Shown: in pieces, positions 5,718-44,798 of the stretch
Layout of the letters: every line of letters starts with the position of its first letter
Numbering within the stretch: position 1 is the stretch's first letter
Assembly: GCA_014360755.1 (NCBI GenBank)
Contig: JACIWX010000004.1
Span: forward strand, 13,172-77,171
Direction: 5' to 3'
Length of the DNA stretch: 64,000 nucleotides
DNA from: Chloroflexota bacterium
GTDB lineage: Bacteria; Chloroflexota; Anaerolineae; UBA2200
Translations under genes and position numbers: made by a program
The notes under the pieces: model-generated
Told to the model about the DNA's origin: nothing
The model's input: only the letters and a program-made list of their open reading frames with translations
Databases searched by the model: none

Positions 5718-8300
5718 CTACCCCTTGCGTGCCTTCTTCGTCGTTGCTTGAGGAGCAGCAGTGGTGTCTTGTACTTCTCCTTTCTTTGTCCGCCTGGTGC
5801 TTCCTTTCGCCTTGGTTGTGGACTGTTTCGCGGCAGGCCTGCGTGTCTGAAGAGCCCTCTTCTCCTCTCTGGAGGGTGCCTGGCGGGTAGCAGCAGACGC
5901 CTTGGATGTGGCTCGTATGCGCATGATGCTGATGACTTTATCCGTGCCTTTGAGGGGTACAATGATTGTGCCACGCGTGGAACGGCTTTGTTGGGGGATT
6001 TCGCTAGCTTTGGTTCGCAAGGTGGTTCCTCTGGCAGAGGAAATGCCAATCTCGTTATCCTTACGCACGACACAAGCTGCTGCCAGCAACCCGGTTTGCG
6101 CTAGGGCTTTGGACGAGAAGGTCTCAATGCCTTTGCCGTAACGGCTCTGGGCTGGATAGGCTGTCAGAGGCGTCTGTTTGGCATAGCCTTTTTCGCTCAC
6201 GACGAGCAGAGAAGCGCCTTCCTGCACGCCATCCATCCCGATAATGTAGTCATCAGTGGCTAGTTTGATGGCTTTCACGCCCGCGGCGTTGCGGCCCATT
6301 GCCCGTACTTCCTCTTCATGAAAACGTATCGCTTGCCCCCTTGCGGTAACTAAAATGAGCTCTTGGTTGCCGCCGGTGATCATGGCACAACGCAACTTAT
6401 CGCCTTCGTCCAATGCGATGGCAGTCAGGCCACTTGGACGGATAGCGGAGAACTCTTCTAGCGGGGTGCGTTTGATGCGGCCTTGGGCAGTGCACATGGT
6501 CAGGAAGGTGCCTGCTTGGAAGTCAGGCGTTTCTATCACTGCAGTTACCGTTTCGTCTGCTTCGGTGGTCAGCAAACTAGAGAGAGGGATGCCCGTTGCC
6601 GAATCAGGGATTTGATGCGCTTTGATGGTAAAGCAGCGGCCTTTGTCCGTGCAAAAGAGCACATTGTGCAGTGTGTTGGTCGCCACTATATGCTGTACGG
6701 CATCCCGGCTTGTCGCAGGAAACAGGTCGCTGCGCCGGGAAACCCTTTTCACATAGCCCCGTTGCGTCACGGCAACGAACACATCTTCCTCTGGAATCAG
6801 GTCTTCGACCCTGATTTCTTCGGCTTCCTTTTCCGAAATACGTGTGCGTCGGGCATCGCCATAGCGTTCTTTCAGTTCCTGCAGCTCTGCCTTGATGACC
6901 TGGAGGATTTTGCGCGGGCTAGCCAGCAGGCTCTGCAGGTATTGGATTTGCTTCAGTACATCCGCATATTCTTCCTCGATTTTGCGGCGTTCCAGTGCTG
7001 CCAAACGACGTAATTGCAAATCGAGGATGGCGCGTGCTTGTATCTCCGTCAGCTTGAACTTGCGCTGTAGATTATGCAAGGCGGTATCCGCATTTTGAGA
7101 TTGGCGGATGGTGGTGATGACTGCATCCAAGTTGTCCAGGGCAATTTTCAGCCCTTCGAGGATGTGGGCGCGCAACTTGGCGCGCTCCAGTTCAAAACGG
7201 CTGCGGCGGGTGATGACTTCCTGGCGATGTTCGATAAACAGTTGCAGGCACCGCTTCAACGATAGGACACGGGGTTCACCGTCCACCAACGCCAACAGGT
7301 TGACGTTGAACGTGCTCTGCATAGGCGTGTATTTGTACAATTGCATCAATGTGGGCTGTGGTTCCATCCCACGCTTCAGCTCAATGACGATACGCATGCC
7401 CTGGCGGTCGGATTCATCGCGCAAATCGGATATCGTCTCAATCCTTTTGTCGCGCACCAACTCGGCGATTCTCTCAATCAGGCTGGCTTTGCCCACTTGA
7501 TACGGGAGCTCGGTAACGATAATGACAGATTTGCCCCCGCCAGCGTCCTCAAAATGCGCCCTTGCCCGCACGACGATCTTCCCATTGCCAGTAGCATAGG
7601 CACTGCGGATGCCTTCCAGCCCCAGGATAGTGCCCCCGGTTGGGAAATCAGGGCCTTTGATAAACGTCATCAGTTCTTCCACAGAAATGGCATCTATACG
7701 CCGATAGTTGTCTATGAGGAAGATCAGGGCATCACACACTTCGTTCAAATTGTGCGGCGGTACATTGGTAGCCATGCCGACCGCGATGCCGGAGGCACCG
7801 TTCAGCAGGAAATTTGGCACGCGCGTGGGCAGCACCGTTGGCTCTTGCAATGTGCCATCAAAGTTGTCCATGAAATCCACGGTGTCTTTGTCTATGTCAG
7901 CCAGCAATTCCTCGGCAATGGGGGTCAGGCGCGCTTCGGTATAGCGCATCGCGGCGGGGTTGTCACCATCAATAGAGCCAAAGTTACCCTGGCCATCCAC
8001 CAGCAAATACCGCATTGTGAAATCCTGGGCCATACGCGTCATCGCATCGTAAACCGCGACATCGCCGTGGGGGTGGTACTTGCCCAGCACTTCACCGACG
8101 ATGCGGGCGCTTTTCTTGTAAGGTTTGTCGTGCTGCAAGCCCATGTCATTCATGGCGTAGAGGATACGGCGTTGTACGGGCTTTAATCCATCCCGGACAT
8201 CGGGCAGGGCGCGCGAAGTGATGACACTCATGGCGTAATCCAAATACGCTGTCTTCATTTCCTGCTCGATGTCAACCTGTCTGACGATGCCAATCTCCAT
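5718..8300 (-). CDS. gyrA: DNA gyrase subunit A with a Lys/Arg-rich C-terminal tail
   Basis: [34 protein letters not shown] and the active-site region AMRYTEARL. The ORF track start is 8330; the ATG at 8300 (MEIGIV) fits the TATAAT at 8335-8340 better. Confidence 0.97.
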
Positions 8301-23719: not shown

Positions 23720-24721
23720 CTAGCGTGAAACAGTGCTCGCCATCCTAGCAGCCAATTTCAATGCTTCGATCATGCTAGTTGGCTGGGCAGTCCCCTTGCC
23801 TGCCTTGTCAAAGGCAGTGCCATGGTCAACCGAGGTACGGATAATGGGCAGACCCAGCGTAACATTCACGCCTTGCTCAAAAGCCAGGACTTTGACCGGA
23901 ATGTGCCCTTGGTCGTGGTACATAGCCACCACCGCATCGAATTGGCCTTCTTTCATGCGGTAGAAGACAGTATCTGGGGAGATGGGCCCACTCACATCCA
24001 TGCCTTGTGCCCGCGCCACCTCGACCGCCGGGCGGATTTCCCGTTCCTCTTCATCGCCAAAAAGCCCGCTTTCACCAGCATGTGGGTTGAGCCCGGCCAC
24101 CGCCAAACGCGGCTGGGCAATACCCAGCCGTTGCAAGGCATCATGTGTCAAGCGGGTCACTTCCACGATGCGCTCTTTTTTCACCCAATGGATGGCTTCG
24201 CGCAAGGGTATATGCGTGCTGACATGGCTCACGCGGAAATCCCCCGCAACCAGCAGCATCGTAACGCTTTTGACCCCGCATAGGTGGGCTAAGAGTTCCG
24301 TATGGCCTGCAAAATGGTGCCCTGCCAGGTTCAATGCTTCTTTGTGTAAGGCAGAGGTAACGATAGCAGCGATCTCTCCCGCCAGTGCCAATTCAACGGC
24401 TTTCACCACGCACTCGTATGCAGCCTGGCCTGTCATGGCATCTACTTTGGCATACTCCAAGCGGCTCAGGTCAATGTTGTGTAGGTCAATGACCTCGATG
24501 ACGTCCGCGTCGAAAGTCGCCTCGCTCACACGGTGGATAGCACGGATCGGGACACTACTGCCCACAATCCGTGCCGCCTGACGGAATGCCGCCGCATCGC
24601 CAATCACGATAGGGCGGCAAAGGCCGCGTACCTGGGATTGCGTGAGAGCCTTCACCACGATTTCTGGCCCAGCCCCACTGGCATCCCCCATTGTAACGCC
24701 TAGAATGGGTTTCTCTTTCAT
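23720..24721 (-). CDS. PdxA-family NAD-dependent 4-phospho-hydroxyacid dehydrogenase (PdxA2-like by context)
   Basis: GVTMGDASGAGPEI, HAGESGLFG, MYHDQGHIP and IRTSVDHGTAFD. The ATG at 24721 overlaps the stop of the upstream kinase (ATGA). Confidence 0.88.
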   Translation of the reverse strand: MKEKPILGVTMGDASGAGPEIVVKALTQSQVRGLCRPIVIGDAAAFRQAARIVGSSVPIRAIHRVSEATFDADVIEVIDLHNIDLSRLEYAKVDAMTGQAAYECVVKAVELALAGEIAAIVTSALHKEALNLAGHHFAGHTELLAHLCGVKSVTMLLVAGDFRVSHVSTHIPLREAIHWVKKERIVEVTRLTHDALQRLGIAQPRLAVAGLNPHAGESGLFGDEEEREIRPAVEVARAQGMDVSGPISPDTVFYRMKEGQFDAVVAMYHDQGHIPVKVLAFEQGVNVTLGLPIIRTSVDHGTAFDKAGKGTAQPTSMIEALKLAARMASTVSR

Positions 24722-25926
24722 GGCAACCTTCCCTGAATGCACTCTATACATCGCAGGATGGCTGTCTCATCCCCAAACGCACCCGCTTTGGTCACGATGC
24801 GCACGCCATCAGATAATCCGCCTACCAACGTTCCAGCGGGCACGCCGGCCTCTACTTCGCCGTGGATTTGGAGCGCTTTTGCCTCCAAAGCTCGGCACAG
24901 CGCACGGGCTATGTCCCCGCCGGTCACGACAAACCCAGCCAAGGATGAAAGGGCCCAAGCCTTTGCTGCTGCTTGGGCTAGCGCCTCAGCGATCACTTTT
25001 TCTTTTCCGCTCTGGTGCTCAGAAAAAGCCGTGGTCAAGGCTACATGGTGTCCTCGATTCAGCCGAGGAATCACTTCTGCCTGTATTTTCTGCGCCCAAT
25101 CCTCCCCGGCTGGCAAATGGATCAGATACACGTTGTTGCCCGAAGCAGCGCGCTGCAATTGACGCAGCGTCGCAGGGTGGCGGCTGCCAGCCACCACCAA
25201 CACCGGTCGGGAATCAGGGCACCAATGAAACGGCGCGTGGTCTGGCCGTGCCCATCCCAAAGCCTGTGGCCATTCCTCTGCCCAGCCAGCCGATCCACAT
25301 GGCAGCCACTGCTCCGCCATGCGGGTTAACACCCGTGCCAGTATACGTAGGTGCCTTTGTTCAGCAGCGTCGGCTGCCACAATGGAAGCTGGTTCATTCC
25401 TCAGTGCACGGATGACTGCTTGTTCCCCTTCCTCTATCACGGACAGTGGCAGATATCCAACGGAGCGGTGAGTTTGTCGCGACAGCACAGTAGGTAGGTG
25501 CGACTCGGTGGCTGGCCACAGGGGATCGTGGGCAAAGGCACTTTCGCTCAGCAATACGCCATCCACACGGTGATAGCCATCCACTGTCGTACGGCCCGCA
25601 GCGGGAAAGGCAGGCGCAACCAGCGCTCTTTGCCAACCTAACTCATCCAATGCTCCTTCTAATTCTGGGCCGATGTTCCCACGCAGATTGGAATCAATCT
25701 TCTTGTAGATAAAGCGCCCGTGCAATCGCTTGGCAGCTTGTCTTGCCCGGCGGTATGCTTCCCCAGCAGGCTCATCCCGGCTGTCGGTGCTGAGCGCTAC
25801 GACTTCGGCTGAAGGCTGTTCCTGATCGCTCAGCAGGACCAGTGTGTGCAATCCCTGTTTGGCAAATTGCGCGCCTGTATCCATGGCACCGGTCAGGTCA
25901 TCGGCAATAACGCCCAGTTGGATCAT
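24718..25926 (-). CDS. Four-carbon acid-sugar kinase (DUF1537, YgbK/OtnK/DtnK family)
   Basis: The N-terminal GVIADDLTGAMDTGAQF motif is diagnostic of DUF1537; C-terminal VTGGDIA and VTKAGAFG. Confidence 0.85.
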   Translation of the reverse strand: MIQLGVIADDLTGAMDTGAQFAKQGLHTLVLLSDQEQPSAEVVALSTDSRDEPAGEAYRRARQAAKRLHGRFIYKKIDSNLRGNIGPELEGALDELGWQRALVAPAFPAAGRTTVDGYHRVDGVLLSESAFAHDPLWPATESHLPTVLSRQTHRSVGYLPLSVIEEGEQAVIRALRNEPASIVAADAAEQRHLRILARVLTRMAEQWLPCGSAGWAEEWPQALGWARPDHAPFHWCPDSRPVLVVAGSRHPATLRQLQRAASGNNVYLIHLPAGEDWAQKIQAEVIPRLNRGHHVALTTAFSEHQSGKEKVIAEALAQAAAKAWALSSLAGFVVTGGDIARALCRALEAKALQIHGEVEAGVPAGTLVGGLSDGVRIVTKAGAFGDETAILRCIECIQGRLP

Positions 25927-26009: not shown

Positions 26010-26804
26010 TCAAATGCTGGTATCCATAGCAAATCCCAGCACGCGCTCAAAGCGGCGCAGCACCTTGAGCAAAGGGGTGCCGAGAGAAAGAATAAGTACG
26101 GCATTGCCTGCCGCACGCCATGCATCCCACCATAAAGATGTGGCCAGATAGAAGACGGCGTAGCGCTTGATTGCCTCACGGAATGGCAGCCCTGTTTCCC
26201 AAGCCTGTCCGGGGGACACTTGCGCTGTGGAGATATAGGGCCAGAACCAGAGGTTCATGATCGCACCAAAGATGAATCCCCACAGGGCAGTCCAGGCAGC
26301 CAGCATGAGCAATTCGGCGATCCTCCATCGGCGTAGATCGGGCAGCCAACCCGAGGTTAATCCCATCCAGCCGGCGGTGAACATCTGGTAAGGAAGCCAT
26401 GGTCCCACGCCCCCGCCAATCAGCGCGGAAACCAGGAGCGATAGCACACCCACCAGGAAGCCCAATGTGCTACCATATACATAGCCGCAGAGTACAAGGA
26501 GGAAAAAGATCGCTGAAAAGCCGCCAGGCCCGGGGATAGTGCGCAGGATGGCATTCACTGCGCTCAGTACGCCAAGCACGGCGATCGTCCTAGCGCTCAT
26601 CTGGCGGCTGGTCAGGTTGGCGACGATGATGACCACGCACAATAAGGTCAGGATCAAGGTGACAGAGGGCGCGTCCTGAGCGTGCGCTATGGCAAAGGGG
26701 CTACCGCCTGTCGTTGGAGTGAAAAAAGGATAGGCAAAAGCGGCGATGCCAGTGAGGGTGGCGAGTATCAGGATGGCAGAATTCACCCATTGCCCCCATT
26801 TCAT
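26010..26804 (-). CDS. Putative ECF-transporter substrate-capture (S) component
   Basis: 264 aa and polytopic. It is the last gene of the ECF module and overlaps the ATPase gene by 4 nt. No family motif recognised. Confidence 0.5.
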   Translation of the reverse strand: MKWGQWVNSAILILATLTGIAAFAYPFFTPTTGGSPFAIAHAQDAPSVTLILTLLCVVIIVANLTSRQMSARTIAVLGVLSAVNAILRTIPGPGGFSAIFFLLVLCGYVYGSTLGFLVGVLSLLVSALIGGGVGPWLPYQMFTAGWMGLTSGWLPDLRRWRIAELLMLAAWTALWGFIFGAIMNLWFWPYISTAQVSPGQAWETGLPFREAIKRYAVFYLATSLWWDAWRAAGNAVLILSLGTPLLKVLRRFERVLGFAMDTSI

Positions 26805-28429
26805 CTTCCCAGAGCCTCCAGGACGTCCTTTACGGTGAGCAGGCGAGGATCGCGGAACAATTTGTTCACCTGTGAAGCAAAGACCAGCGACTGGCTCATT
26901 ACTTCGCGCGTTGGCCCATCTACTGCTACCTGGCCTTCGCTGAGGATGACCACGCGGTGTGCGCAGGCGGCGGCCAGTTCTACATCGTGCGTGGCAAGAA
27001 TGACAGTACGGCCTTGTTCTGTCTGGGCGCGCAGAAAATCAGCCAATGCCTGCTTCTCCACGGGGTCAAGCCCACGTGTCGGTTCATCAAGCAGCAAAGT
27101 AGGAGGCTCAGCAACGAGGATCGCAGCGATTGCTACGCGTTGCCGCTGGCCAACGCTCAGCTCGCGCGGATACAGTTCAGCCAGTTGGGTTAGTCCCAGC
27201 TTTTCCAACCAGGACTGTACTCCTGCTAAGGATAGTGCGTGGGCACGACGCGTGAATTCCAGTTCTTGGCGAACGGTATCGGCAAAAAGTAAAGTGCTTG
27301 GGTCTTGGGGGACATAGCCCACATAGCGGATGAGGGTTTCCAACGATGTCCGGCGTGTATCCTGTCCGTGCACCACGACATAGCCGCGCTTGGGCTGCAA
27401 AAGTCCCACGAGGTGCTTCAACAAAGTGGTTTTGCCCGATCCATTGCGTCCCATGAGCGCGATCAACTCACCCTCTCCGGCGCGCAAGGAGACCCGGCGC
27501 AGTGCCTCCACGCCATTGTAATTGAACCACACCTCGTGCGCTTCAACATGCACGGGGTTGTATTCGCGTCGCAACCCTGGCTGGTGAGTCTCACGAGGCA
27601 AAGCACGCTGCATGTCCATTTGGCTGATGAAAGGACGTGCTTCTTTGATAGTCAAGGGCAGAGGTTGCCAATGGAATGCCTTAGCCAGTTGCACCAGAGG
27701 AGGCGCAAAGGGAACTTGGGGCAGTACTTCTTCCGCCTTGCCCAGCATTGGCTGGCTACCTAGTGCAGGAAGATAGATGATCTGGTCTGCGTATTGCACG
27801 ACCCGTTCCAGACGGTGTTCTGAGAGCACAACCGTCAAGCCCAGGTCTTGGTTCAGATGGCGTAGCGTAGTCAGCACTTCTTCTGCCGCCTGAGGGTCGA
27901 GTTGTGAAGTTGGCTCATCCAGTACGAGCACTTTGGGCTGCAGCGTGAGCACAGAACCGATGGCAACGCGTTGCTTTTCGCCCGCCGAAAGGCTGCTAAT
28001 CCGCCGCTGACGCAGGTGCGCAATGCCCAGTTGATCCAGTACTTCTTCCACGCGCTTGCGCATTACCGTCTGTGGAAGCCCTTGGTTCTCCATGCCAAAG
28101 GCTAGTTCATCCTCTACTGTGTCTACCACGAACTGCGCTTCTGGATCCTGCTGCACCAAGCCAACGATAGGGCTCATCCGATGGGGGCCTTCCGCGATGG
28201 GATCGTGGCCTGCCACCGTGATCTTCCCGGCAATGCGTCCGCCACTGAAATGGGGCACCAGTCCGTTCAGTGTACGCAACAGGGTAGATTTGCCAGCGCC
28301 AGAGGGCCCAATGACCAGAACAAAATCCCCCTCTTGGATGGCCACGTTCACTTGGTTCAATGCAGGGCGATCACTATGCGGATAATGAAAAGTTACGTTC
28401 TGTAGTCTAATTAACGGTGTATGCATCAA
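26801..28429 (-). CDS. ECF transporter ATPase, fused EcfA-EcfA' (two ABC domains)
   Basis: Walker A GPSGAGKST and GRNGSGKTT; signatures LSAGEKQRV and LSVGQRQRV; Walker B LVLDEPTS and LLLDEPT. Confidence 0.92.
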   Translation of the reverse strand: MMHTPLIRLQNVTFHYPHSDRPALNQVNVAIQEGDFVLVIGPSGAGKSTLLRTLNGLVPHFSGGRIAGKITVAGHDPIAEGPHRMSPIVGLVQQDPEAQFVVDTVEDELAFGMENQGLPQTVMRKRVEEVLDQLGIAHLRQRRISSLSAGEKQRVAIGSVLTLQPKVLVLDEPTSQLDPQAAEEVLTTLRHLNQDLGLTVVLSEHRLERVVQYADQIIYLPALGSQPMLGKAEEVLPQVPFAPPLVQLAKAFHWQPLPLTIKEARPFISQMDMQRALPRETHQPGLRREYNPVHVEAHEVWFNYNGVEALRRVSLRAGEGELIALMGRNGSGKTTLLKHLVGLLQPKRGYVVVHGQDTRRTSLETLIRYVGYVPQDPSTLLFADTVRQELEFTRRAHALSLAGVQSWLEKLGLTQLAELYPRELSVGQRQRVAIAAILVAEPPTLLLDEPTRGLDPVEKQALADFLRAQTEQGRTVILATHDVELAAACAHRVVILSEGQVAVDGPTREVMSQSLVFASQVNKLFRDPRLLTVKDVLEALGR

Positions 28430-28432
28430 TCC

Positions 28433-29587
28433 TCATCCTCGATCGGTTTCGTAGTAGGATACGTGTAGAGAGGGCCATAGCCAAGCAGGTGTGGCGGTTA
28501 GGAGAATGGCTAGCCCAAGCGCTGGTGAAAACCCAGGCCAGGGGGAGTAAGGGGGATAGGGATAATAAAACAAGGCTGCGGGGTCCCGCACCTGGGTGTA
28601 GGCAGTGATGGCAAGGGATGCTAGACAAGCCAGGGATACCAGAGTATCCCGTTGTTGCCACAATTCATGGTGGTAGTGCGTACGTTTCAGACGTCTGCCT
28701 TGCGTGTAAAGAGCCGCAAATAAGAGCAATATACCCAGCGCAACTGATAACAGTCCTAGCCACTGTACAGAATCTGTCGCTCGCCACAGGAGACCCACTA
28801 GTAGCGCCAGCAATCCAGCCAACGTTGTCCCACGTTGGAGGTTTGTTGTGCTCCTTTCCGTCGTTGTTGGCATTGGGGAAACGCTCGAATCAGCCACTGC
28901 AAAGCGATCAATCCCGCCAAAGCCGCGTGCCTCCATTGATTCGGCTAGGGTCAAGGAACGCTCCAGGGCTGTCGTCAGTAAAGGCACAAACAGTGGTATC
29001 CAATCTCGGATGGCGCGAAACTTGTGTCCACGGAGGAGCTGAGCTTCCCGTATCTCTCGGAGGCTAGCGATTAGTTGTGGGATAAAAGACAAAGCAATAG
29101 AGACAATCAATCCAGCTTGGTAGAGCCCAGCGGGGAGCCAGCGCAACAATCGGTGTGCATCCAAACCTAGATTAAAGGTGGCAAAAACCAATAGCACGGC
29201 AAAAAGACTGGCGCCATTTGCCAATCCATATAGCAAGGCTTCTAATGTGATTGGTCCGCCGATGAATGGCCAGTTGCGTGGCAGCACCAATAATACGATG
29301 TTGCCGGCATGGGCAAAAAGCAGGTTGAAAAAGAGTGCTACCAACCAGACTGACAAGCCAAAGCGCAGAAAAGCGCTCCACCCTTGGACTTTCCAAGCCT
29401 GACCCGCATGTGAGGACGCATTTCTAGCCCCGGGGTTGGCTTCTGGTTGGTTTGCGCGGCTGACCGCGGCAAAAACCGTGCCCGTGGCTAGGATGAGCAA
29501 TATCGATTGGAGCGGCTGCTGGTTCACCAAGGCTAGGTATGCTGCAGCGCCAAGCCATGCTAGCCAAGTAAGCGTATGGTAGGCCAT
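28433..29587 (-). CDS. ECF transporter transmembrane (T) component, CbiQ/EcfT family, with an extra C-terminal polytopic extension
   Basis: Coupling-helix motifs LREIREAQLLRG and AESMEARGFG. About 130 residues with further hydrophobic helices follow the CbiQ core. Confidence 0.8.
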   Translation of the reverse strand: MAYHTLTWLAWLGAAAYLALVNQQPLQSILLILATGTVFAAVSRANQPEANPGARNASSHAGQAWKVQGWSAFLRFGLSVWLVALFFNLLFAHAGNIVLLVLPRNWPFIGGPITLEALLYGLANGASLFAVLLVFATFNLGLDAHRLLRWLPAGLYQAGLIVSIALSFIPQLIASLREIREAQLLRGHKFRAIRDWIPLFVPLLTTALERSLTLAESMEARGFGGIDRFAVADSSVSPMPTTTERSTTNLQRGTTLAGLLALLVGLLWRATDSVQWLGLLSVALGILLLFAALYTQGRRLKRTHYHHELWQQRDTLVSLACLASLAITAYTQVRDPAALFYYPYPPYSPWPGFSPALGLAILLTATPAWLWPSLHVSYYETDRG

Positions 29588-29590
29588 GAG

Positions 29591-30208
29591 TTACCGCTCC
29601 TGTCGGCGCAAGTGCAGGAAGAAAAAGCTGCCAACTAGCACTGCCGTCATCAGAGCAAAGGCAGCATATTGCATCAGTATAGTGCTTCGGCTATCCCTTG
29701 TGGTAGCATCCAGCTGGTTTGCGGTCACAGCTGCCCCGCGAGCACAAATTTGTTCTACAGGCACAACCGGAGGCGGTTGGCCATTGCTCCAAGCCCAGCC
29801 TTCGATATCGCCATCGCGTACGAGATAATCCGCAGCCCCTACTTGTGAGTAGACCCAACGGCCTTCGCGCCAATGCCAATAACTCCAATAGAGGCATTTT
29901 GCCCCCGTACATTGGCAGAAGCATGGCTCGGTAGGATAATCACAGCCATCCTGGTCGATGCGGCATACCGCGCCGCCCCATGTGACAACGTGCAATCCAG
30001 AGCGCATAAGCAGCTCCAGGCCGCTGAGGCTGTCCTCAGCAAAGGGTATACAGCGCGTGATGTAACTGCCATCGCCCAATTGTATCACCAGGCCAGCACG
30101 ATGGCTTGGTTGAGAGGCTGCCGCTGCAGTGGCGGCGGCATAGTAAGTTATTGCGATGGTGACCAAAGCCAGGGCTAGGATAGCGAGTGCCCATTTATTG
30201 CCATTCAT
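29591..30208 (-). CDS. Exported DUF4430-like (transcobalamin beta-domain-like) protein with a C-terminal membrane anchor
   Basis: N-terminal signal/anchor. YWSYWHWREGRWVYSQVGAADYLVRDGDIEGWAW resembles the DUF4430 pattern GW.Y.VNG....a..Y.l.dGD.i.W.Y. Cys-rich insert CRIDQDGCDYPTEPCFCQCTGAKC. C-terminal TM helix. Confidence 0.5.
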   Translation of the reverse strand: MNGNKWALAILALALVTIAITYYAAATAAAASQPSHRAGLVIQLGDGSYITRCIPFAEDSLSGLELLMRSGLHVVTWGGAVCRIDQDGCDYPTEPCFCQCTGAKCLYWSYWHWREGRWVYSQVGAADYLVRDGDIEGWAWSNGQPPPVVPVEQICARGAAVTANQLDATTRDSRSTILMQYAAFALMTAVLVGSFFFLHLRRQER

Positions 30209-30276
30209 CCGCGATGTTCCTCTAAGGAGAAGTATGGTGACCGGTGTCTTCCTTGACGCCGGTCACCTATTGCTCG

Positions 30277-31245
30277 CTAGCGCAGGCTGCGCAGCGGGAG
30301 GGTCTTGCCCAGCAGGGCTGGGATAGCCTGTACAGTAGCCATAACTGGGCTGCCCACTCCACGCTGGAACTCGATTTTGCCATCTTCCGCTTGCAGTGCG
30401 AGCAACGCGGTCACTGGGTTGCCACCAGCCTTGCTCCATTTCGCATCTTCTGGCTTTTCGCCAACGGCATACAACGCCATAATCACAGCAGCAGTGGAAT
30501 TGGCATTGGTGTCCGTACCCCACTCAGAAGGTTTGATAGCTGGAAACCCGCCGTCATCGTTCTGTTGCTCCAGGAAAAAGGCCAAGGCTTTACGGATCGC
30601 CGGGGAGTTGGTAGGTTCGCCTCCCGCGACAAGCGCCTGCAAGACACAGGAGACAGTATCATTGTCTGGACCAAAAGCGGAAGCCCACGCACCGTTTTCG
30701 AGTTGATAACTTTTGAGCACCGTTAAGGCTTCTGCTGGCACCTCCTGCCCTGCGGCCTTTAGGGCGAGGATAGCCCAGGCTTGGCCCACTGAACCTGGGT
30801 CATAGATTCCCTTGCTGCTGGCAAAGGATTGCAAGCGATCCACGTAATTGATACCCCCAAAGTTCTTGGGGTCAAGACCAGCTGCAACCACTGTTACAAT
30901 CAGTTTGCCTGTTGTCGCTGCATCCATGGCATACTCGTTGCCGTTGGCAGCCAAGTAATCCATGAGCGATGGCTTACCTGCGGCAGAGCGCCATGTCGCG
31001 GGATCGCCACCGCTGGCAACAATCGCCAGCACCGCATCGCAGGTTACGCCAGCGGGATGGCCAAAGCCAATATTGAAACTGCCGTCTTCCTGCAGTTGCG
31101 TACGCAGCCAGGTCAGAGCTTTCTCAGCTGCTTGTTGTCCACGGCTGGGTTGTGTTTTCGGTACACGAGGGCTGCAGGCACTGATGCAGAGCAACGCTAT
31201 AATCAGTGCCAGTGCAGCTAGTAAATACAGTTGTTTTTTTCGCAT
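30277..31245 (-). CDS. Lipoprotein with prenyltransferase/squalene-oxidase-like alpha/alpha-toroid repeats
   Basis: Lipobox LLCISAC. Repeated helical-hairpin units contain DGSF, NGAW, DGGF and DGKI turns, as in terpenoid cyclase / prenyltransferase repeats. Confidence 0.75.
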   Translation of the reverse strand: MRKKQLYLLAALALIIALLCISACSPRVPKTQPSRGQQAAEKALTWLRTQLQEDGSFNIGFGHPAGVTCDAVLAIVASGGDPATWRSAAGKPSLMDYLAANGNEYAMDAATTGKLIVTVVAAGLDPKNFGGINYVDRLQSFASSKGIYDPGSVGQAWAILALKAAGQEVPAEALTVLKSYQLENGAWASAFGPDNDTVSCVLQALVAGGEPTNSPAIRKALAFFLEQQNDDGGFPAIKPSEWGTDTNANSTAAVIMALYAVGEKPEDAKWSKAGGNPVTALLALQAEDGKIEFQRGVGSPVMATVQAIPALLGKTLPLRSLR

Positions 31246-31271
31246 CGCAAGGTCCTTTCTCCGTGTGATGG

Positions 31272-31307
31272 TAAAAAGAAACCCCCTGCCTCTTCGGACA
31301 AGGGGTT
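31272..31307 (-). terminator. Intrinsic terminator in the riboswitch expression platform
   Basis: Minus strand reads AACCCCTTGTC-cgaaga-GGCAGGGGGTT followed by TCTTTTTA. The stem is 11 bp including two G-U pairs. Confidence 0.7.
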
Positions 31308-31367
31308 AAATGGATTTTTTCTCTTTTCTCTCCCACCCCCTTTCTCGCGAAGGGTCGCTAGGAGCAC

Positions 31368-31487
31368 CACAGAGGCGGGTAATCTGGCTCCCTCGGATAA
31401 ACCGAGGCTACAGTTGCGGGACAGCGCCGGACTGAACCGGTCTTCCCCCATCGTCGCCGGGCTTCCGGGCCTTGGGCGACCTCTGTG
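31368..31487 (-). promoter_or_regulatory. Cobalamin (B12) riboswitch aptamer
   Basis: Minus strand has a closing helix CACAGAGG...CCTCTGTG, the core GGGAAGACCGGTTCAGTCCGGCGCTGTCCCGCAACTGTAG, and a B12-box-like GAGCCAGATTACCCGCC. Confidence 0.75.
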
Positions 31488-31511
31488 TTGCAGATATGCG
31501 ATTCATTTGCT

Positions 31512-31540
31512 AATATAGCAAATAAAAATGTTTTCGTCAA
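31512..31540 (-). promoter_or_regulatory. Sigma70-type promoter of the B12-regulated operon
   Basis: Minus strand reads TTGACG (31540-31535), 17 nt, TATATT (31517-31512). Confidence 0.6.
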
Positions 31541-31552
31541 ACACAGTGGCAC

Positions 31553-31730
31553 GAGAGTGTTGAAAAAGCCCTTTCAATGTCATGCTGAACCTTCGCCCTG
31601 AGCCTTGCTCTGAGCGAAGCGAAGGGAAAGCGAAGGGGAAGTGAAGCATCTCGCAGTACTTGGGAAAATACGGCTAAAGTTACGCGAGGCCCTTCGCTTT
31701 GCTCAGGGTGACAGGATTTTCAACACTCTC
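31553..31730 (+). mobile_element. MITE-like palindromic repeat, copy 2 (178 bp)
   Basis: Same termini as copy 1 plus an extra internal hairpin module (cttcgccctgagc...gcgaagg). Flanks are gtggcac / gtggtac. Confidence 0.8.
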
Positions 31731-31807
31731 GTGGTACCGGTTTTTACTAAGACTCGAGAATGCGCGAGATCGCTTACAAAGGATGTAGACATCTGCAGGA
31801 GGGTTTC

Positions 31808-32401
31808 ATGGATAACATTGGTTGGCGCAGGTTGATTTACCTAGTGCTTATCTTGTGGATTGGGCTCCTTCTCTACTCGCTTTTTCGCATCCCCGCGCCG
31901 GCGTTGTATCTGGCTGTGCGGGCCACTGCCTTGTTTAGCTATACAGCCGTTTTCTTAGCCATCCTCTCGGCCGAATACCTGCGCGAAATGCGCAGGCTCT
32001 TTGGCGAGCCTTTCCTTACCGTGCACCACATTTTGGCAGTAGCCGGATTGCTGCTTATGAGCTTGCATGCTGTACTCTTCGCTCTGCTGATGCGTGATAT
32101 AACAGTGTTTTTGCCGCGTTTTGACTCCTTGCGTATTTTCCTATCCTTAGGCGGTCGGCCTGCTCTGTATCTCTTTGCCATAGCCGCGTTGGCAGCAGTA
32201 GTACGAGGTCGTATTCGCCATATCTGGAGAACGATCCACTGGCTCAACTACCTCGCTTTCGCGCTGGCTTTTGTCCACTCCTGGCTGATTGGCACAGATG
32301 TTTCCAACCTCTTGCTGCGCTCCATCTGGGTAGTTCTCGCTGGGATTGTATTATGGGTTTTCATACGCAAGCGGCTGTTGCAGCGCAGAACACGACATTG
32401 A
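31808..32401 (+). CDS. Ferric-reductase-like transmembrane (di-haem, MsrQ/YedZ-like) protein
   Basis: Six hydrophobic helices with conserved His pairs (VHHILAVAGLLLMSLHAV; IHWLNYLAFALAFVHSW). GGAGG Shine-Dalgarno before the ATG at 31808. Confidence 0.6.
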   Translation: MDNIGWRRLIYLVLILWIGLLLYSLFRIPAPALYLAVRATALFSYTAVFLAILSAEYLREMRRLFGEPFLTVHHILAVAGLLLMSLHAVLFALLMRDITVFLPRFDSLRIFLSLGGRPALYLFAIAALAAVVRGRIRHIWRTIHWLNYLAFALAFVHSWLIGTDVSNLLLRSIWVVLAGIVLWVFIRKRLLQRRTRH

Positions 32402-32403
32402 TC

Positions 32404-33654
32404 TTATGCGTCTTCCAGTAACCTTCGCTCGCCAGTCAGTTCGCGGATACGCGTGATGTCCTGTGTCACTTCTATAGTGCCCACATATGCACCATTCTCG
32501 TCACGCACCGCAAAGTAGCGGATGTGCACGAATTTGCCCTTCATCTGAATCCAGAACTCAGCCACGTCTCGCTTGCCTTGCCGGAAATCATCCAAGATGC
32601 GGTTCACCACATGTATACTGGCGGGTGGGTGGCAATTCTGGACTTTACGACCAATAATGGCTTTGGCGCGTGGGAAAATGCGTTCTGGAGTCTGTGAAAA
32701 GTATCTCACAGTATCGTCCTTATCCACAAAGGTGATGTCAACCGGCAGGTGCTTCAGGAGCAAGTTAATTTCCTGGGGCGTCAAACTGCCTGTATCCAGG
32801 GACAAGGCGCTCGGTATCACTTGTGCCTCGGCAGGCTGCGCTGCTGCCGCGGGTTGTTCCTTGGCTACAGCCTGTGGCCATTCATCTCCCGGTTGAATCA
32901 AGCAATAGCCCAGCTCAGCGCTTTGTTCCTTAATTGCCAACCATTCTGCATCTGAGAACCTCTCTAAGGCTGCCGGATAGAGGATGTTGTTCTCCTTGTA
33001 GATCATCTCAGTAATGGCGGTGCTCAAAGGCTGGACTACTTGTTTAATGGCTGCCACCAGCGCAGCGAAATCATAATCTCGGTACTTGGTCAGTATCTGC
33101 TGCAGTTCCTTGAGTTTAGCGCGGATATCGTCATGAATAGCCCACATGACCGAAGATGGCCCGTAGAAACCATGCTTTTCTAGATAGGGGAAGAGCAGGT
33201 TTTCTTTGCGTAAATAGTGTTTATTGACTTGCATCAACCTGTCCAGAGTTTCGCGTGCGCGCTGTATTGGCTCACCTGCCGCCTCAATCGTCCCCGCCGC
33301 GGCTATCTGCTGTATCCTCTCTGCAAGTTCTTCCACTACTTTGGCTATGGCTTCGTTTTCAGCGCGGAAAGTATGCACCGGATGCCCAGGCACCATTTCG
33401 GGTGGCACTTGCTTGTCCAGTGACTCGCGGAACACCTGCACATGGACGTCGCATAGCTCTTTGATCTGCTCGCTAGGCACCCCTTCTGCAATCAGTGCTT
33501 GCTCCATTTGCGCGATTTCCGTCGCGCTGACATCCTTTATGAGCGCACGAAACTCTTCCTTTACCGCTTCAAGGTCACGTCCCTCGTGCAGTTCGCGGAT
33601 GAGTCGTTTTAGCGTTTCCTGTCGGTATTGACGGTTATTGATGTACTCGCTCAT
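32404..33654 (-). CDS. DUF438 protein (hemerythrin-like HHE domain plus C-terminal PAS)
   Basis: The N-terminal LIRELHEGRDLEAVKEEFRALIKDVSATEIAQMEQALI pattern is typical of DUF438. His/Glu-rich central domain; PAS-like C-terminus. Confidence 0.75.
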   Translation of the reverse strand: MSEYINNRQYRQETLKRLIRELHEGRDLEAVKEEFRALIKDVSATEIAQMEQALIAEGVPSEQIKELCDVHVQVFRESLDKQVPPEMVPGHPVHTFRAENEAIAKVVEELAERIQQIAAAGTIEAAGEPIQRARETLDRLMQVNKHYLRKENLLFPYLEKHGFYGPSSVMWAIHDDIRAKLKELQQILTKYRDYDFAALVAAIKQVVQPLSTAITEMIYKENNILYPAALERFSDAEWLAIKEQSAELGYCLIQPGDEWPQAVAKEQPAAAAQPAEAQVIPSALSLDTGSLTPQEINLLLKHLPVDITFVDKDDTVRYFSQTPERIFPRAKAIIGRKVQNCHPPASIHVVNRILDDFRQGKRDVAEFWIQMKGKFVHIRYFAVRDENGAYVGTIEVTQDITRIRELTGERRLLEDA

Positions 33655-33694
33655 TGATCCTCCTCAACCTTTCTCTCAGAAATCTGGTTTGTAA

Positions 33695-34912
33695 TCATCC
33701 TTCCTCACGGATGCTGCGGGCAAAGGCAGCGGCGAGTTCCTCTGCTTTGTGCAGGTCTTCGAGGGTTGGTGCCCCCTGAAATTCCAACGGAGTGAATTGT
33801 TCCCATTTTAAAGTTTGTGCGATGGCATCAAACTCGCGCTGGGCCCCACCTGACCAGCCATACGACCCATAACGGAAAACTTTTTTATTGGTCATATTCT
33901 TGCGCATAATGCTGTCCAGGACATGCGCCATAGGCGGGAACAGCTTGGTCTCGTAAGTCGGAGCGCCAACAACAACGCCCTTGTTCTTAAAGACGGAAGC
34001 CAGGATGTAAGATTCATCTGCCAAGGGTACTTCAAAGACTTCCATGGGCACTTGCTCGCGGGCGATGCCGCGCATTACGGCATCGGTGGCGATTTTGGTA
34101 TTGCCGTACATGCTGCTCCAAAGCAAGGTAATGCCCTTTTCAGCCTTTCCGGTGGGGTATTCGGCGAATTTCTTGTAATAGGCGACCACCTCTCCAGGGT
34201 TTTTGCGCCAGACCAAGCCATGGGAGGGCGCAATCACAGAGACTTCTGTCCCGGCCAGTTTGTCAATAGCCCGCAGCACCATGCGGGAAAAGTTCGCCAC
34301 GATGTTGGCATAGTAGCGCAGCATTTCATCGTAATAGAAAGCCCAGTCGGATTCCTGAACCTGGTCGTCAAAAAGGATGCCTTTCAACGCACCAAAGCCA
34401 CCGAACGCATCGCAGGAAAACAACACTTTCGTTGTGAGTTCGTAGGTCATCATCGTTTCAGGCCAATGGACAAATGGCGTGTGGACAAAAAGTAGCCTCT
34501 TGCCTCCACCTAAGTCGAGCTGTTCGCCATCCTCCACCGCTTTTAGCCCTTCGGTGATGCCAAAGAAGTGTTTGGTCATCTCGATTCCCTTGGGCGTGGA
34601 AATAATGACCGCTTGCGGGGCTATGCGGCGAAAGTTCTGCACAAACTCTGTATGATCTGGTTCTAGATGGTTCAAGATGACATAGTCAACATCCTGCGGT
34701 GCTATGCCTGTGGAGTGCAATTGGGTGAGGAGGTTGCGCGAACTGCCGCTCCACTCACGCACCAAGTCGATAATGGCGGTCTTTTCACCCTTTACCAAGT
34801 AGGAGTTAAGGGATACGCCATGCGGAATGGGCCAGAGGCCCTCAAACAAGTCATGCGATCTGACATTGACGCCAATCCACCAAATTCCTGGCTTAATTTC
34901 TATTGCAGTCAT
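33695..34912 (-). CDS. Flavodiiron protein (FprA-type A-flavoprotein, O2/NO reductase)
   Basis: Metallo-beta-lactamase-like di-iron motif NHLEPDH plus a C-terminal flavodoxin domain (LLWSSMYGNT). Confidence 0.9.
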   Translation of the reverse strand: MTAIEIKPGIWWIGVNVRSHDLFEGLWPIPHGVSLNSYLVKGEKTAIIDLVREWSGSSRNLLTQLHSTGIAPQDVDYVILNHLEPDHTEFVQNFRRIAPQAVIISTPKGIEMTKHFFGITEGLKAVEDGEQLDLGGGKRLLFVHTPFVHWPETMMTYELTTKVLFSCDAFGGFGALKGILFDDQVQESDWAFYYDEMLRYYANIVANFSRMVLRAIDKLAGTEVSVIAPSHGLVWRKNPGEVVAYYKKFAEYPTGKAEKGITLLWSSMYGNTKIATDAVMRGIAREQVPMEVFEVPLADESYILASVFKNKGVVVGAPTYETKLFPPMAHVLDSIMRKNMTNKKVFRYGSYGWSGGAQREFDAIAQTLKWEQFTPLEFQGAPTLEDLHKAEELAAAFARSIREEG

Positions 34913-44527: not shown

Positions 44528-44667
44528 GGGTGTTGAAAATCTTGTCACCCTATGCGAAGGGTCTCGCGTAACTTTATTTTCCCAAGTACTGCGAGATGCT
44601 TCACTCCCCCTTCGCGTTGCTCAGGGCGATGGTTCAGCATGACATTGAAAGGGCTTTTTCAACACTC
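44528..44667 (-). mobile_element. MITE-like palindromic repeat, copy 3 (inverted orientation, 140 bp)
   Basis: The reverse complement aligns block by block with copies 1 and 2 (gtcatgctgaac, gtgaagcatctcgcagtacttgggaaaata, agggtgacaagattttcaacac). Confidence 0.75.
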
Positions 44668-44674
44668 ATTGGGG

Positions 44675-44798
44675 GAGGTATTGAAAAAGCCTCTCGATGT
44701 CGCCCTGAAAATCTCCGTGCCGCCGCAGATCGGCATAGGAGCCCGATTTGCTGAACGGGTCATGTCCAGTCTACGCGAGATGCTTCACTTCGGTTCAG
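44675..44798. repeat. Degenerate or rearranged relative of the MITE family
   Basis: Starts gaggtattgaaaaagcctctcgatgtc (like the left end) and ends with the inverted gaagtgaagcatctcgcg block. It includes the stop codon of the adjacent gene. Confidence 0.4.

Follow-up and report, generated by a model that had tools for sequence, protein, structure and literature searches.

A cobalamin-riboswitch operon of a Chloroflexota bacterium, a probable corrinoid importer with two surface-anchored, transcobalamin-like proteins

This work concerns a stretch of 64,000 nucleotides from a Chloroflexota bacterium (Anaerolineae, UBA2200; assembly GCA_014360755.1, contig JACIWX010000004.1, positions 13,172 to 77,171), called the window below, and an operon carried by its minus strand between positions 26010 and 31540. 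Five genes placed behind a cobalamin riboswitch and its terminator encode two surface-anchored proteins, one predicted to fold as an alpha/alpha toroid and the other as a beta domain, and a complete energy-coupling factor (ECF) transporter. We consider it probable that this operon constitutes an importer of corrinoids (B12 or cobinamide) in a monoderm Chloroflexota, made of a terminating riboswitch, a tethered, split analogue of transcobalamin and an ECF module of its own. A first, sequence-only reading of the stretch had described a complete system for the capture and import of corrinoids. The riboswitch control, the complete ECF module and the two surface-anchored proteins were all recovered in the present analysis, and the role as an importer is retained as a probable one.

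To our knowledge, the acquisition of B12 by monoderms devoid of BtuFCD is poorly mapped, ECF-CbrT, BtuM and BacA being the few characterised routes, and in the textbook view ECF transporters work without extracytoplasmic substrate-binding proteins. The operon class described here appears to couple a B12 riboswitch to an ECF transporter having its own two-part surface capture device. If true, this would reveal a widespread class of ECF transporters dependent on external binding proteins, contrary to the textbook view.

The riboswitch leader and the ECF module

Promoter, riboswitch leader, terminator and five genes were found on the minus strand, each where the first reading had placed it. The putative sigma-70-type promoter (31512..31540) is composed of TTGACG, a 17-nt spacer and TATATT with a TG extension; it matches the consensus at 10 of 12 positions, in agreement with its earlier description as near-consensus. 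A promoter scan of the region returned 4 promoter-like sites, for 3.0 expected by chance, and it is because of its position, ending 13 nt upstream of the aptamer start, and not because of statistics, that the match is credible. The aptamer (31357..31499) matched the cobalamin riboswitch family RF00174 of Rfam over the full length of the model (positions 1-189), with 46.5 bits (E 1.7e-8) for a gathering score of 31.5 bits, and this was the sole Rfam match within the 64-kb window. The leader, which had at first been called riboswitch-like, can thus be assigned to this family.

Downstream of the aptamer, a linker belonging to the expression platform (31308..31356) contains a small hairpin, CCCTT..AAGGG, and is followed by an intrinsic terminator (31270..31307), in which an 11-pair, G+C-rich hairpin (31307..31280) precedes the run TCTTTTT. 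The sequence CCCTTCGCGAGAAAGGGGGTGGGAG, or a near-identical one, is present 3' of the aptamer in the window and in the related loci L002, L009, L010 and L015 (see below). The 3' arm of the linker hairpin (AAGGGG) could pair with the 5' arm of the terminator, and we regard it as a candidate antiterminator. Of the 11 leaders examined in Chloroflexota, window included, 10 have a hairpin with a run of at least 4 T between aptamer and start codon. As predicted from sequence, the leader possesses an expression platform whose terminator hairpin and T run are placed to switch expression. At high intracellular cobalamin concentration, the aptamer would bind its ligand, and the downstream hairpin and T run would terminate transcription. 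At low concentration, an alternative pairing would prevent termination, and all five genes would be transcribed.

Immediately upstream of the riboswitch promoter lies a nested palindromic element of about 225 nt (31530-31753), with outer arms at 31530-31566 and 31717-31753 and inner arms at 31610-31626 and 31690-31706. The -35 box of the promoter falls inside one of the outer arms. A second, closely similar copy is found in the opposite orientation at about 44545-44700, within the intergenic region at 44.3-44.8 kb. The element resembles repeats of the miniature inverted-repeat transposable element or repetitive extragenic palindromic type, and may supply promoter sequence.

The five genes are tightly packed, with spacings of 68, 3 and 3 nt followed by a 4-nt ATGA overlap between genes 4 and 5. 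The overlap had been reported by the first reading, and the range of 2-68 nt that it gave for the gaps was close enough to the actual values.

The last three genes encode the transporter proper. Gene 3 (28433..29587, minus strand, 384 aa) encodes an EcfT of the CbiQ family (PF02361, E 1.4e-11 over residues 76-225, 44.9 bits for a cut-off of 25), which also matches the EcfT chains present in the PDB (E 4e-7) and contains the Ala-Arg-Gly coupling motif, as MEARGFG at residue 220. It is prolonged by a C-terminal membrane extension of about 150 aa, with extra hydrophobic segments at 256-333. As part of this extension aligns with the T component of the L. curvatus system described below, it may be common to the entire class. 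Gene 4 (26801..28429, minus strand, 542 aa) encodes a fused EcfA-EcfA' ATPase. It has two ABC_tran domains (E 5e-62) and two sets of Walker A, signature and Walker B motifs, and scores 372.7 bits with TIGR04520 (cut-off 315) and 349.9 bits with TIGR04521 (cut-off 330). Gene 5 (26010..26804, minus strand, 264 aa) encodes the S component, the substrate-translocating subunit, recognised by the ECF_trnsprt profile PF12822 (E 1.5e-12, 48.3 bits for a cut-off of 30.7). It has about 6-7 hydrophobic segments and begins with MKWGQW; its score with the CbiM profile is 18.1, for a cut-off of 23.1 (E 0.0025). With a PF12822 S component, a CbiQ-family T component and two ECF ATPase domains, a dedicated ECF module of group I is complete, and these profile matches bear out the identification of EcfT, fused EcfA-A' and putative S component made in the first reading.

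The two surface-anchored proteins

Gene 1 (30277..31245, minus strand, 322 aa) encodes a surface lipoprotein whose lipobox, ISAC, includes Cys24. By sequence it is closest to the repeat families of squalene-hopene cyclases, and it matches the Pfam family SQHop_cyclase_C (PF13243) above cut-off, with an E value of 5e-10. The AlphaFold2 model of the protein (predicted local distance difference test score, pLDDT, of 94) is an alpha/alpha toroid, the fold that the first reading had attributed to it. A Foldseek search with this model placed class II terpene cyclases first (E about 1e-7), and also retrieved the alpha domain of transcobalamin (E 1.4e-4 to 3e-4, TM-score 0.53-0.58), of which we consider gene 1 to encode a candidate analogue. 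The Pfam family Cobalamin_bind (PF01122) was matched by 5 of 33 gene 1 homologues, with a best E value of 3e-9. At residues 194-197 the protein reads DNDT, where the homologue consensus is DNNT. Close homologues keep the lipobox, and distant ones have a signal peptide and, at the C-terminus, an LPxTG-like anchor or a transmembrane segment followed by RRR, so that the toroid family is always tethered to the surface.

Gene 2 (29591..30208, minus strand, 205 aa) encodes an anchored protein of the SCO2322 family. It is made of a signal peptide, a core of about 110 aa, a variable linker rich in Pro and Thr, a C-terminal transmembrane helix and a basic tail, its hydrophobic segments being at 7-25 and 182-200. 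The core has 8 Cys, including those of the motif CFCQC, and all are invariant in the alignment of homologues. The family assignment comes from the database protein identical to gene 2 (P0001), which carries a precomputed Pfam match to PF28005 (SCO2322), as do most homologues; PF28005 was not matched in the local Pfam scan, made with a copy that may not contain this family. With the NCBIfam profile NF040672 (SCO2322 family), gene 2 scored 31.8 bits for a cut-off of 85. With 4,622 clusters at 50% identity (E up to 1e-3), the beta family is a large one. A link to the actinobacterial SCO2321/SCO2322 was followed and given up, the NCBIfam matches being below their cut-offs and the literature on SCO2321 yielding nothing relevant.

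The AlphaFold2 model of gene 2 (pLDDT 87) gave as its top Foldseek match a bacterial DUF4430 crystal structure, 3u7z (E 9e-4, target-normalised TM-score 0.68). The next matches were the beta domains of transcobalamin, haptocorrin and intrinsic factor, and nothing else was found below E 0.1. According to the model, gene 2 thus shares the three-dimensional fold of DUF4430, a domain which databases already label as transcobalamin-like, one UniRef name even beginning with "Transcobal...". Sequence comparisons gave another picture. The Pfam profile of DUF4430 (PF14478) matched neither gene 2 nor any of 27 aligned homologues, even at E up to 10, and a search of PDB sequences with a profile of the beta family returned nothing relevant. 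The two families have in common the hairpin motif W.Y..G...Y.V..GD...W. We therefore rejected membership of gene 2 in DUF4430 at the sequence level, in view of the missing profile match and of an hhalign probability of 20%, and kept the relationship at the level of the fold. Of the DUF4430-like anchored protein announced by the sequence-only reading, the fold (3u7z, E 9e-4) and the anchor stand, and the membership in PF14478 does not (0 of 28 proteins). The same reading had stated that the surface components are not BtuB, BtuF or BtuG, which is correct, as the two anchored accessory proteins are of an unrelated kind.

Across homologues, both accessory proteins are always anchored at the surface, the anchor being a lipobox, a C-terminal helix or an LPxTG-like signal. 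In transcobalamin, intrinsic factor and haptocorrin, an alpha6/alpha6 toroid and a small beta domain sandwich cobalamin, and both proteins of the window match the domains of these carriers by predicted fold. Unlike in transcobalamin, the two parts are separate in the window, tethered to the membrane and coupled to a transporter, and their own sequence similarity to it is marginal or absent.

Related loci and known systems

The two surface proteins served to gather related loci, and the gene set of the operon was found again in the Chloroflexota loci L001-L007, L009, L010 and L012-L015 (L003 and L004 being counted together), which include Caldilinea (L001), Ardenticatenaceae (L002), a metagenome-assembled genome of Anaerolineae that is the closest relative (L003 and L004) and Brevefilum (L005). 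Chloroflexota and Bacillota taken together, the full operon was seen in 14 loci. It occurs with two gene orders, alpha-beta-T-AA'-S and alpha-beta-S-T-AA'. Directly before the toroid gene, an RF00174 riboswitch (47-77 bits) was present in 11 out of 11 Chloroflexota relatives with upstream DNA, namely L001, L002, L004, L005, L006, L009, L010, L012, L013, L014 and L015. A locus of Hazenella (Bacillales, Bacillota; L020) likewise starts with an RF00174 riboswitch, of 117 bits, which is followed by genes for DUF4430, toroid, DUF4430, CbiQ, fused ATPase and S component. The latter is 28% identical to gene 5 (E 8e-15). The recurrence of the gene set behind B12 riboswitches in other genomes, on which the first reading had made its proposal depend, was thus observed in both phyla. 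Among 6 loci of a single-protein contig scan, L008 from Magnetospira (38 aa) was discarded as spurious.

Corrinoid-salvage genes were found inside the operon or beside it in relatives: L001 has a PduO-type adenosyltransferase gene after that of the ATPase, and CobA/BtuR, CobS and CobU genes are neighbours in L002. Together with the presence of a riboswitch before the same gene set, these neighbours make the link to corrinoids appear strong by comparative genomics. In L002 (9031-12368), the genes for EcfT and the ATPase are separated by an inserted gene with a rhodanese domain. As no S-component gene was found within 8 kb in this locus, we suggest that its S component is encoded elsewhere or shared.

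In several genomes, components of the operon are fused. Toroid and beta domain form a single protein, in this order, in L005 (6222-8669, 815 aa) and L006 (827 aa), and in the reverse order in P0241 and P0372. The toroid-beta fusions of these Anaerolineae reproduce the alpha-then-beta order of transcobalamin. Beta domain and EcfT are joined in a single open reading frame of 611-630 aa in L015 (9156-10991), a locus of the complete Anaerolineales genome CP070814.1. Genes 2 and 3 of the window are in the same frame and 3 nt apart, so that the loss of a stop codon would be enough to fuse them. The topology of such a fusion should be allowed, since the basic tail after the anchor helix should put the C-terminus of the beta protein in the cytoplasm. 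If the two surface proteins do bind corrinoids in the manner of a split transcobalamin, they would be a candidate prokaryotic source, or evolutionary precedent, of the two-domain architecture of transcobalamin, intrinsic factor and haptocorrin.

Some loci depart from the common layout. In L010 (4302-8951), the gene of a multi-toroid protein (933 aa) and two SCO2322 genes in tandem precede the ECF genes, and in the loci of Hazenella (L020), Secundilactobacillus and Lentilactobacillus two DUF4430 genes flank the gene at the toroid position. In L013, a tRNA-Sec gene (7539-7634, 70.8 bits) lies directly upstream of the riboswitch, on the opposite strand. Just upstream of the cluster of Secundilactobacillus paracollinoides (L019, 687-5953) are a group II intron (RF02001, RF01998 and RF00029, with a reverse-transcriptase open reading frame) and a DDE transposase gene. 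Two pairs were found without ECF genes or riboswitch: a toroid and a DUF4430-like gene on plasmid pMM35_02 of Vescimonas fastidiosa (L018, 4888-8053), beside MoxR, DUF58 and transglutaminase genes, and convergent toroid and SCO2322-like genes in Embleya (L017, 7596-11273). Because of these two pairs, the toroid/beta module may have uses beyond transport. In L011, where an SCO2322 gene stands alone (see below), a B12-binding radical SAM gene is located about 6 kb downstream of it.

The first reading knew of no characterised system with this composition, but one has been described. In the Latilactobacillus sakei cluster lsa1836-1840, an S component, a fused A-A' ATPase, a T component and two exported proteins are encoded together (Verplaetse et al., bioRxiv 10.1101/864751). 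Its deletion impaired the accumulation of heme, and complementation restored it (10.1101/864751). The authors saw in it an ECF system whose two exported proteins, alpha and beta, are transcobalamin-like and would act as a scavenger; the cluster had been auto-annotated earlier as a cobalamin transporter, and the study covered heme, not corrinoids (10.1101/864751). Both the composition and the idea of a likeness to transcobalamin are therefore already published for the L. sakei homologue (10.1101/864751). Its five components are those of the window: an anchored alpha/alpha toroid, a beta-like exported protein, EcfT, fused EcfA-A' and an S component. Two differences are found in the surface proteins, the beta protein of the window being a Cys-rich SCO2322 (PF28005) protein with a C-terminal membrane helix, not DUF4430, and its toroid a lipoprotein, not an LPXTG-anchored protein.

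An L. curvatus counterpart (L016) was found by tblastn of a plasmid collection. Its gene order is that of the window, with an LPXTG-anchored toroid, a DUF4430 protein, EcfT, a fused ATPase and an S component. Homology extends to four of the five proteins, with E values between 9e-81 and 5e-13, the identities being 33% for the toroid, 33% for the S component (E 8e-17), 31% for the T component and 34% for the A-A' ATPase (full length). Between gene 2 and the L. curvatus DUF4430 protein, BLASTP gave an E value of 0.16, over a short C-terminal motif only. From the common order and the 31-34% identities, we place the operon of the window as a distant member of the lsa1836-1840 class, with a beta protein taken from another sequence family. 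The operon of the window has a B12 riboswitch, whereas three Lactobacillaceae loci do not. In view of the 117-bit riboswitch of Hazenella, control by B12 exists in both phyla, and it is the riboswitch-less Lactobacillaceae that look exceptional. What the present analysis adds is a consistent context of B12 riboswitches and salvage genes, the Cys-rich, membrane-anchored beta family SCO2322, the toroid-beta and beta-EcfT fusions and the breadth of the class in Chloroflexota. Based on the consistency of this context, we argue that corrinoids are the main substrate of the class.

Among B12-riboswitch-controlled systems, BtuFCD with BtuF, and the surface lipoproteins BtuG and BtuH of Bacteroides, also have extracytoplasmic proteins that bind B12 with high affinity and feed a transporter; BtuF belongs to the class III periplasmic binding proteins, and BtuG is a beta-propeller. 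Their folds are unrelated to those of the window proteins, and the transporter is a type II ABC importer or the TonB-dependent BtuB in their case, an ECF transporter in the window. CbiMNQO and NikMNQO are group I ECF metal importers, with a dedicated module and a CbiQ-family T component, often under a B12 riboswitch. With respect to these, the window lacks a detected CbiN, its CbiM score is below cut-off, its S component is of the PF12822 type, and its surface proteins have no counterpart there. ECF-CbrT of Lactobacillus delbrueckii is also an ECF-type importer of corrinoids (B12 and cobinamide, proven) in a monoderm, in a B12 context including pduO (PMC5997447, where a cbrS gene is named). 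CbrT is a group II S component, which relies on a shared, general ECF module and works without accessory proteins outside the cytoplasm (PMC5997447). By comparison, the ECF module of the window is dedicated, with fused ATPases and an extended T component, and its S component has no detectable similarity to CbrT.

Mechanism, substrate and genomic surroundings

In the mechanism that we propose, the lipid-anchored toroid of gene 1 and the disulfide-rich, helix-held protein of gene 2 would hold a corrinoid clamped between them, with the face of the toroid on one side and the beta domain on the other. The pair would then hand it to the S component encoded by gene 5, and EcfT with the fused EcfA-A' would move it across the membrane at the cost of ATP. 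The leader elements, the genes, the predicted folds, the anchors, the linkage and the fusions come from the analysis itself; the identity of the ligand, the binding of corrinoids by both surface proteins, the geometry of the clamp, the hand-over to the S component and a docking at the extended EcfT are what we infer. The more specific proposal, namely that toroid and beta protein act as bacterial split transcobalamins which clamp the corrinoid and deliver it by docking on the EcfT extension, is put forward tentatively, with somewhat less than an even chance of being right.

A number of observations speak against a corrinoid importer of this design. B12 riboswitches also commonly control cobalt transporters. 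The best matches of the toroid, in sequence as in fold, are terpene cyclases and not transcobalamin, and gene 1 itself has no match to Cobalamin_bind PF01122 (E up to 0.1). The alignment of SCO2322 with DUF4430 obtained with hhalign has a probability of 20% and 28 columns, limited to the C-terminal hairpin motif. Gene 5, compared with all PDB chains by phmmer (E up to 10), matched no S component, CbrT (6fnp) included, and a relationship of the S component with CbrT was rejected on this basis. The SCO2322 gene of L011 (8001-8840) is an orphan, beside an M48 peptidase gene and with no toroid gene, ECF genes or riboswitch. Finally, L. sakei lsa1836-1840, the sole experimentally studied system of this composition, is linked to heme uptake, and RF00174 was not found at the gathering score in the Lactobacillaceae loci L016, L019 and L021.

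These last observations lead to the alternative which survives best, though we judge it improbable: the operon would import heme, or tetrapyrroles generally, as in L. sakei, and the B12 riboswitch would be a regulatory link only. The phenotypes of deletion and complementation of lsa1836-1840 (10.1101/864751) favour it, as does the likeness of the window to L. curvatus, with the toroid, T, A-A' and S proteins 31-34% identical and in the same gene order. Nevertheless, a cobalamin riboswitch precedes the operon in 12 out of 12 Chloroflexota and Hazenella loci with upstream DNA, and adenosyltransferase, CobS and CobU genes are its neighbours, whereas no heme-related genes were seen in the neighbourhoods looked at. 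We argue against heme on account of this riboswitch linkage and of the salvage genes. In addition, the Lactobacillaceae loci, being without a riboswitch, may represent a derived or re-purposed branch, and the L. sakei work dealt with heme, not cobalamin.

It is a little less likely still that the accessory proteins do not capture the substrate at all, the toroid being an extracellular enzyme or envelope protein and the Cys-rich protein serving to process corrinoids (for example by decyanation or reduction) or to stabilise the transporter. A cysteine of BtuM can ligate and decyanate B12 (PMC6072759), and Vescimonas (L018) and Embleya (L017) do pair a toroid with a DUF4430-like or SCO2322-like protein in the absence of ECF genes. 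The best matches of the toroid are, moreover, squalene-hopene cyclases and further terpene cyclases of class II. Against an enzyme of that kind, the position which we take to be that of the catalytic DxDD motif of class II cyclases is occupied by DNDT in the window and by DNNT in the consensus of homologues. The toroid is also extracytoplasmic, and strictly co-transcribed with the ECF genes behind the riboswitch, and the fusions of toroid with beta domain and of beta domain with EcfT speak for a single physical machine.

Least likely of all is an importer of cobalt ions, similar to CbiMNQO and with metal-binding surface accessories: the riboswitch control of cobalt transporters, a T component of the CbiQ family, the weak CbiM match of the S component (E 0.0025), the deposition of 3u7z as a "putative metal binding protein" and the 8 invariant Cys of gene 2 would fit it, but the CbiM score (18.1) is below the cut-off of 23.1, no CbiN was detected in the five products of an operon that has no sixth gene, the genes lying nearby in relatives belong to late corrinoid salvage and are not chelatase genes, and a two-part, transcobalamin-like architecture with its fusions fits a large ligand clamped between domains. 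The absence of CbiN, the sub-threshold CbiM score and the chelatase-free neighbourhoods are our reasons for arguing against cobalt, to which may be added the MKWGQW start of the S component, presumably different from the metal-ligating N-terminus of CbiM and NikM.

We thus retain the import of corrinoids, captured by the two surface proteins, as the probable function. If true, the "heme" system of L. sakei would be primarily, or also, a corrinoid importer and would need to be re-examined, and the operon would provide a new marker for predicting B12 scavenging in uncultured Chloroflexota of sediments, sludge and hot springs.

The genes surrounding the operon in the window (PdxA family, four-carbon acid sugar kinase, DUF438-hemerythrin-PAS, flavodiiron-like and ArsA-like) contain no B12-related domains. 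Upstream, just beyond a divergent membrane-protein gene (31760-32401), are, at 32404-34912 on the minus strand, a DUF438-hemerythrin-PAS_10 gene and a flavodiiron-like gene (ODP metallo-beta-lactamase and flavodoxin domains), which point to oxygen or nitric oxide stress, without a link to B12. Downstream (23720-25926, minus strand), 83 nt separate the S-component gene from the start of a four-carbon acid sugar kinase-like gene (SBD_N/NBD_C), behind which lies a PdxA-family gene. As no terminator was detected in the gap between the S-component and kinase-like genes, transcription of the riboswitch operon might continue into both of these downstream genes. In the related locus L009, too, a PdxA gene is found downstream of the operon.

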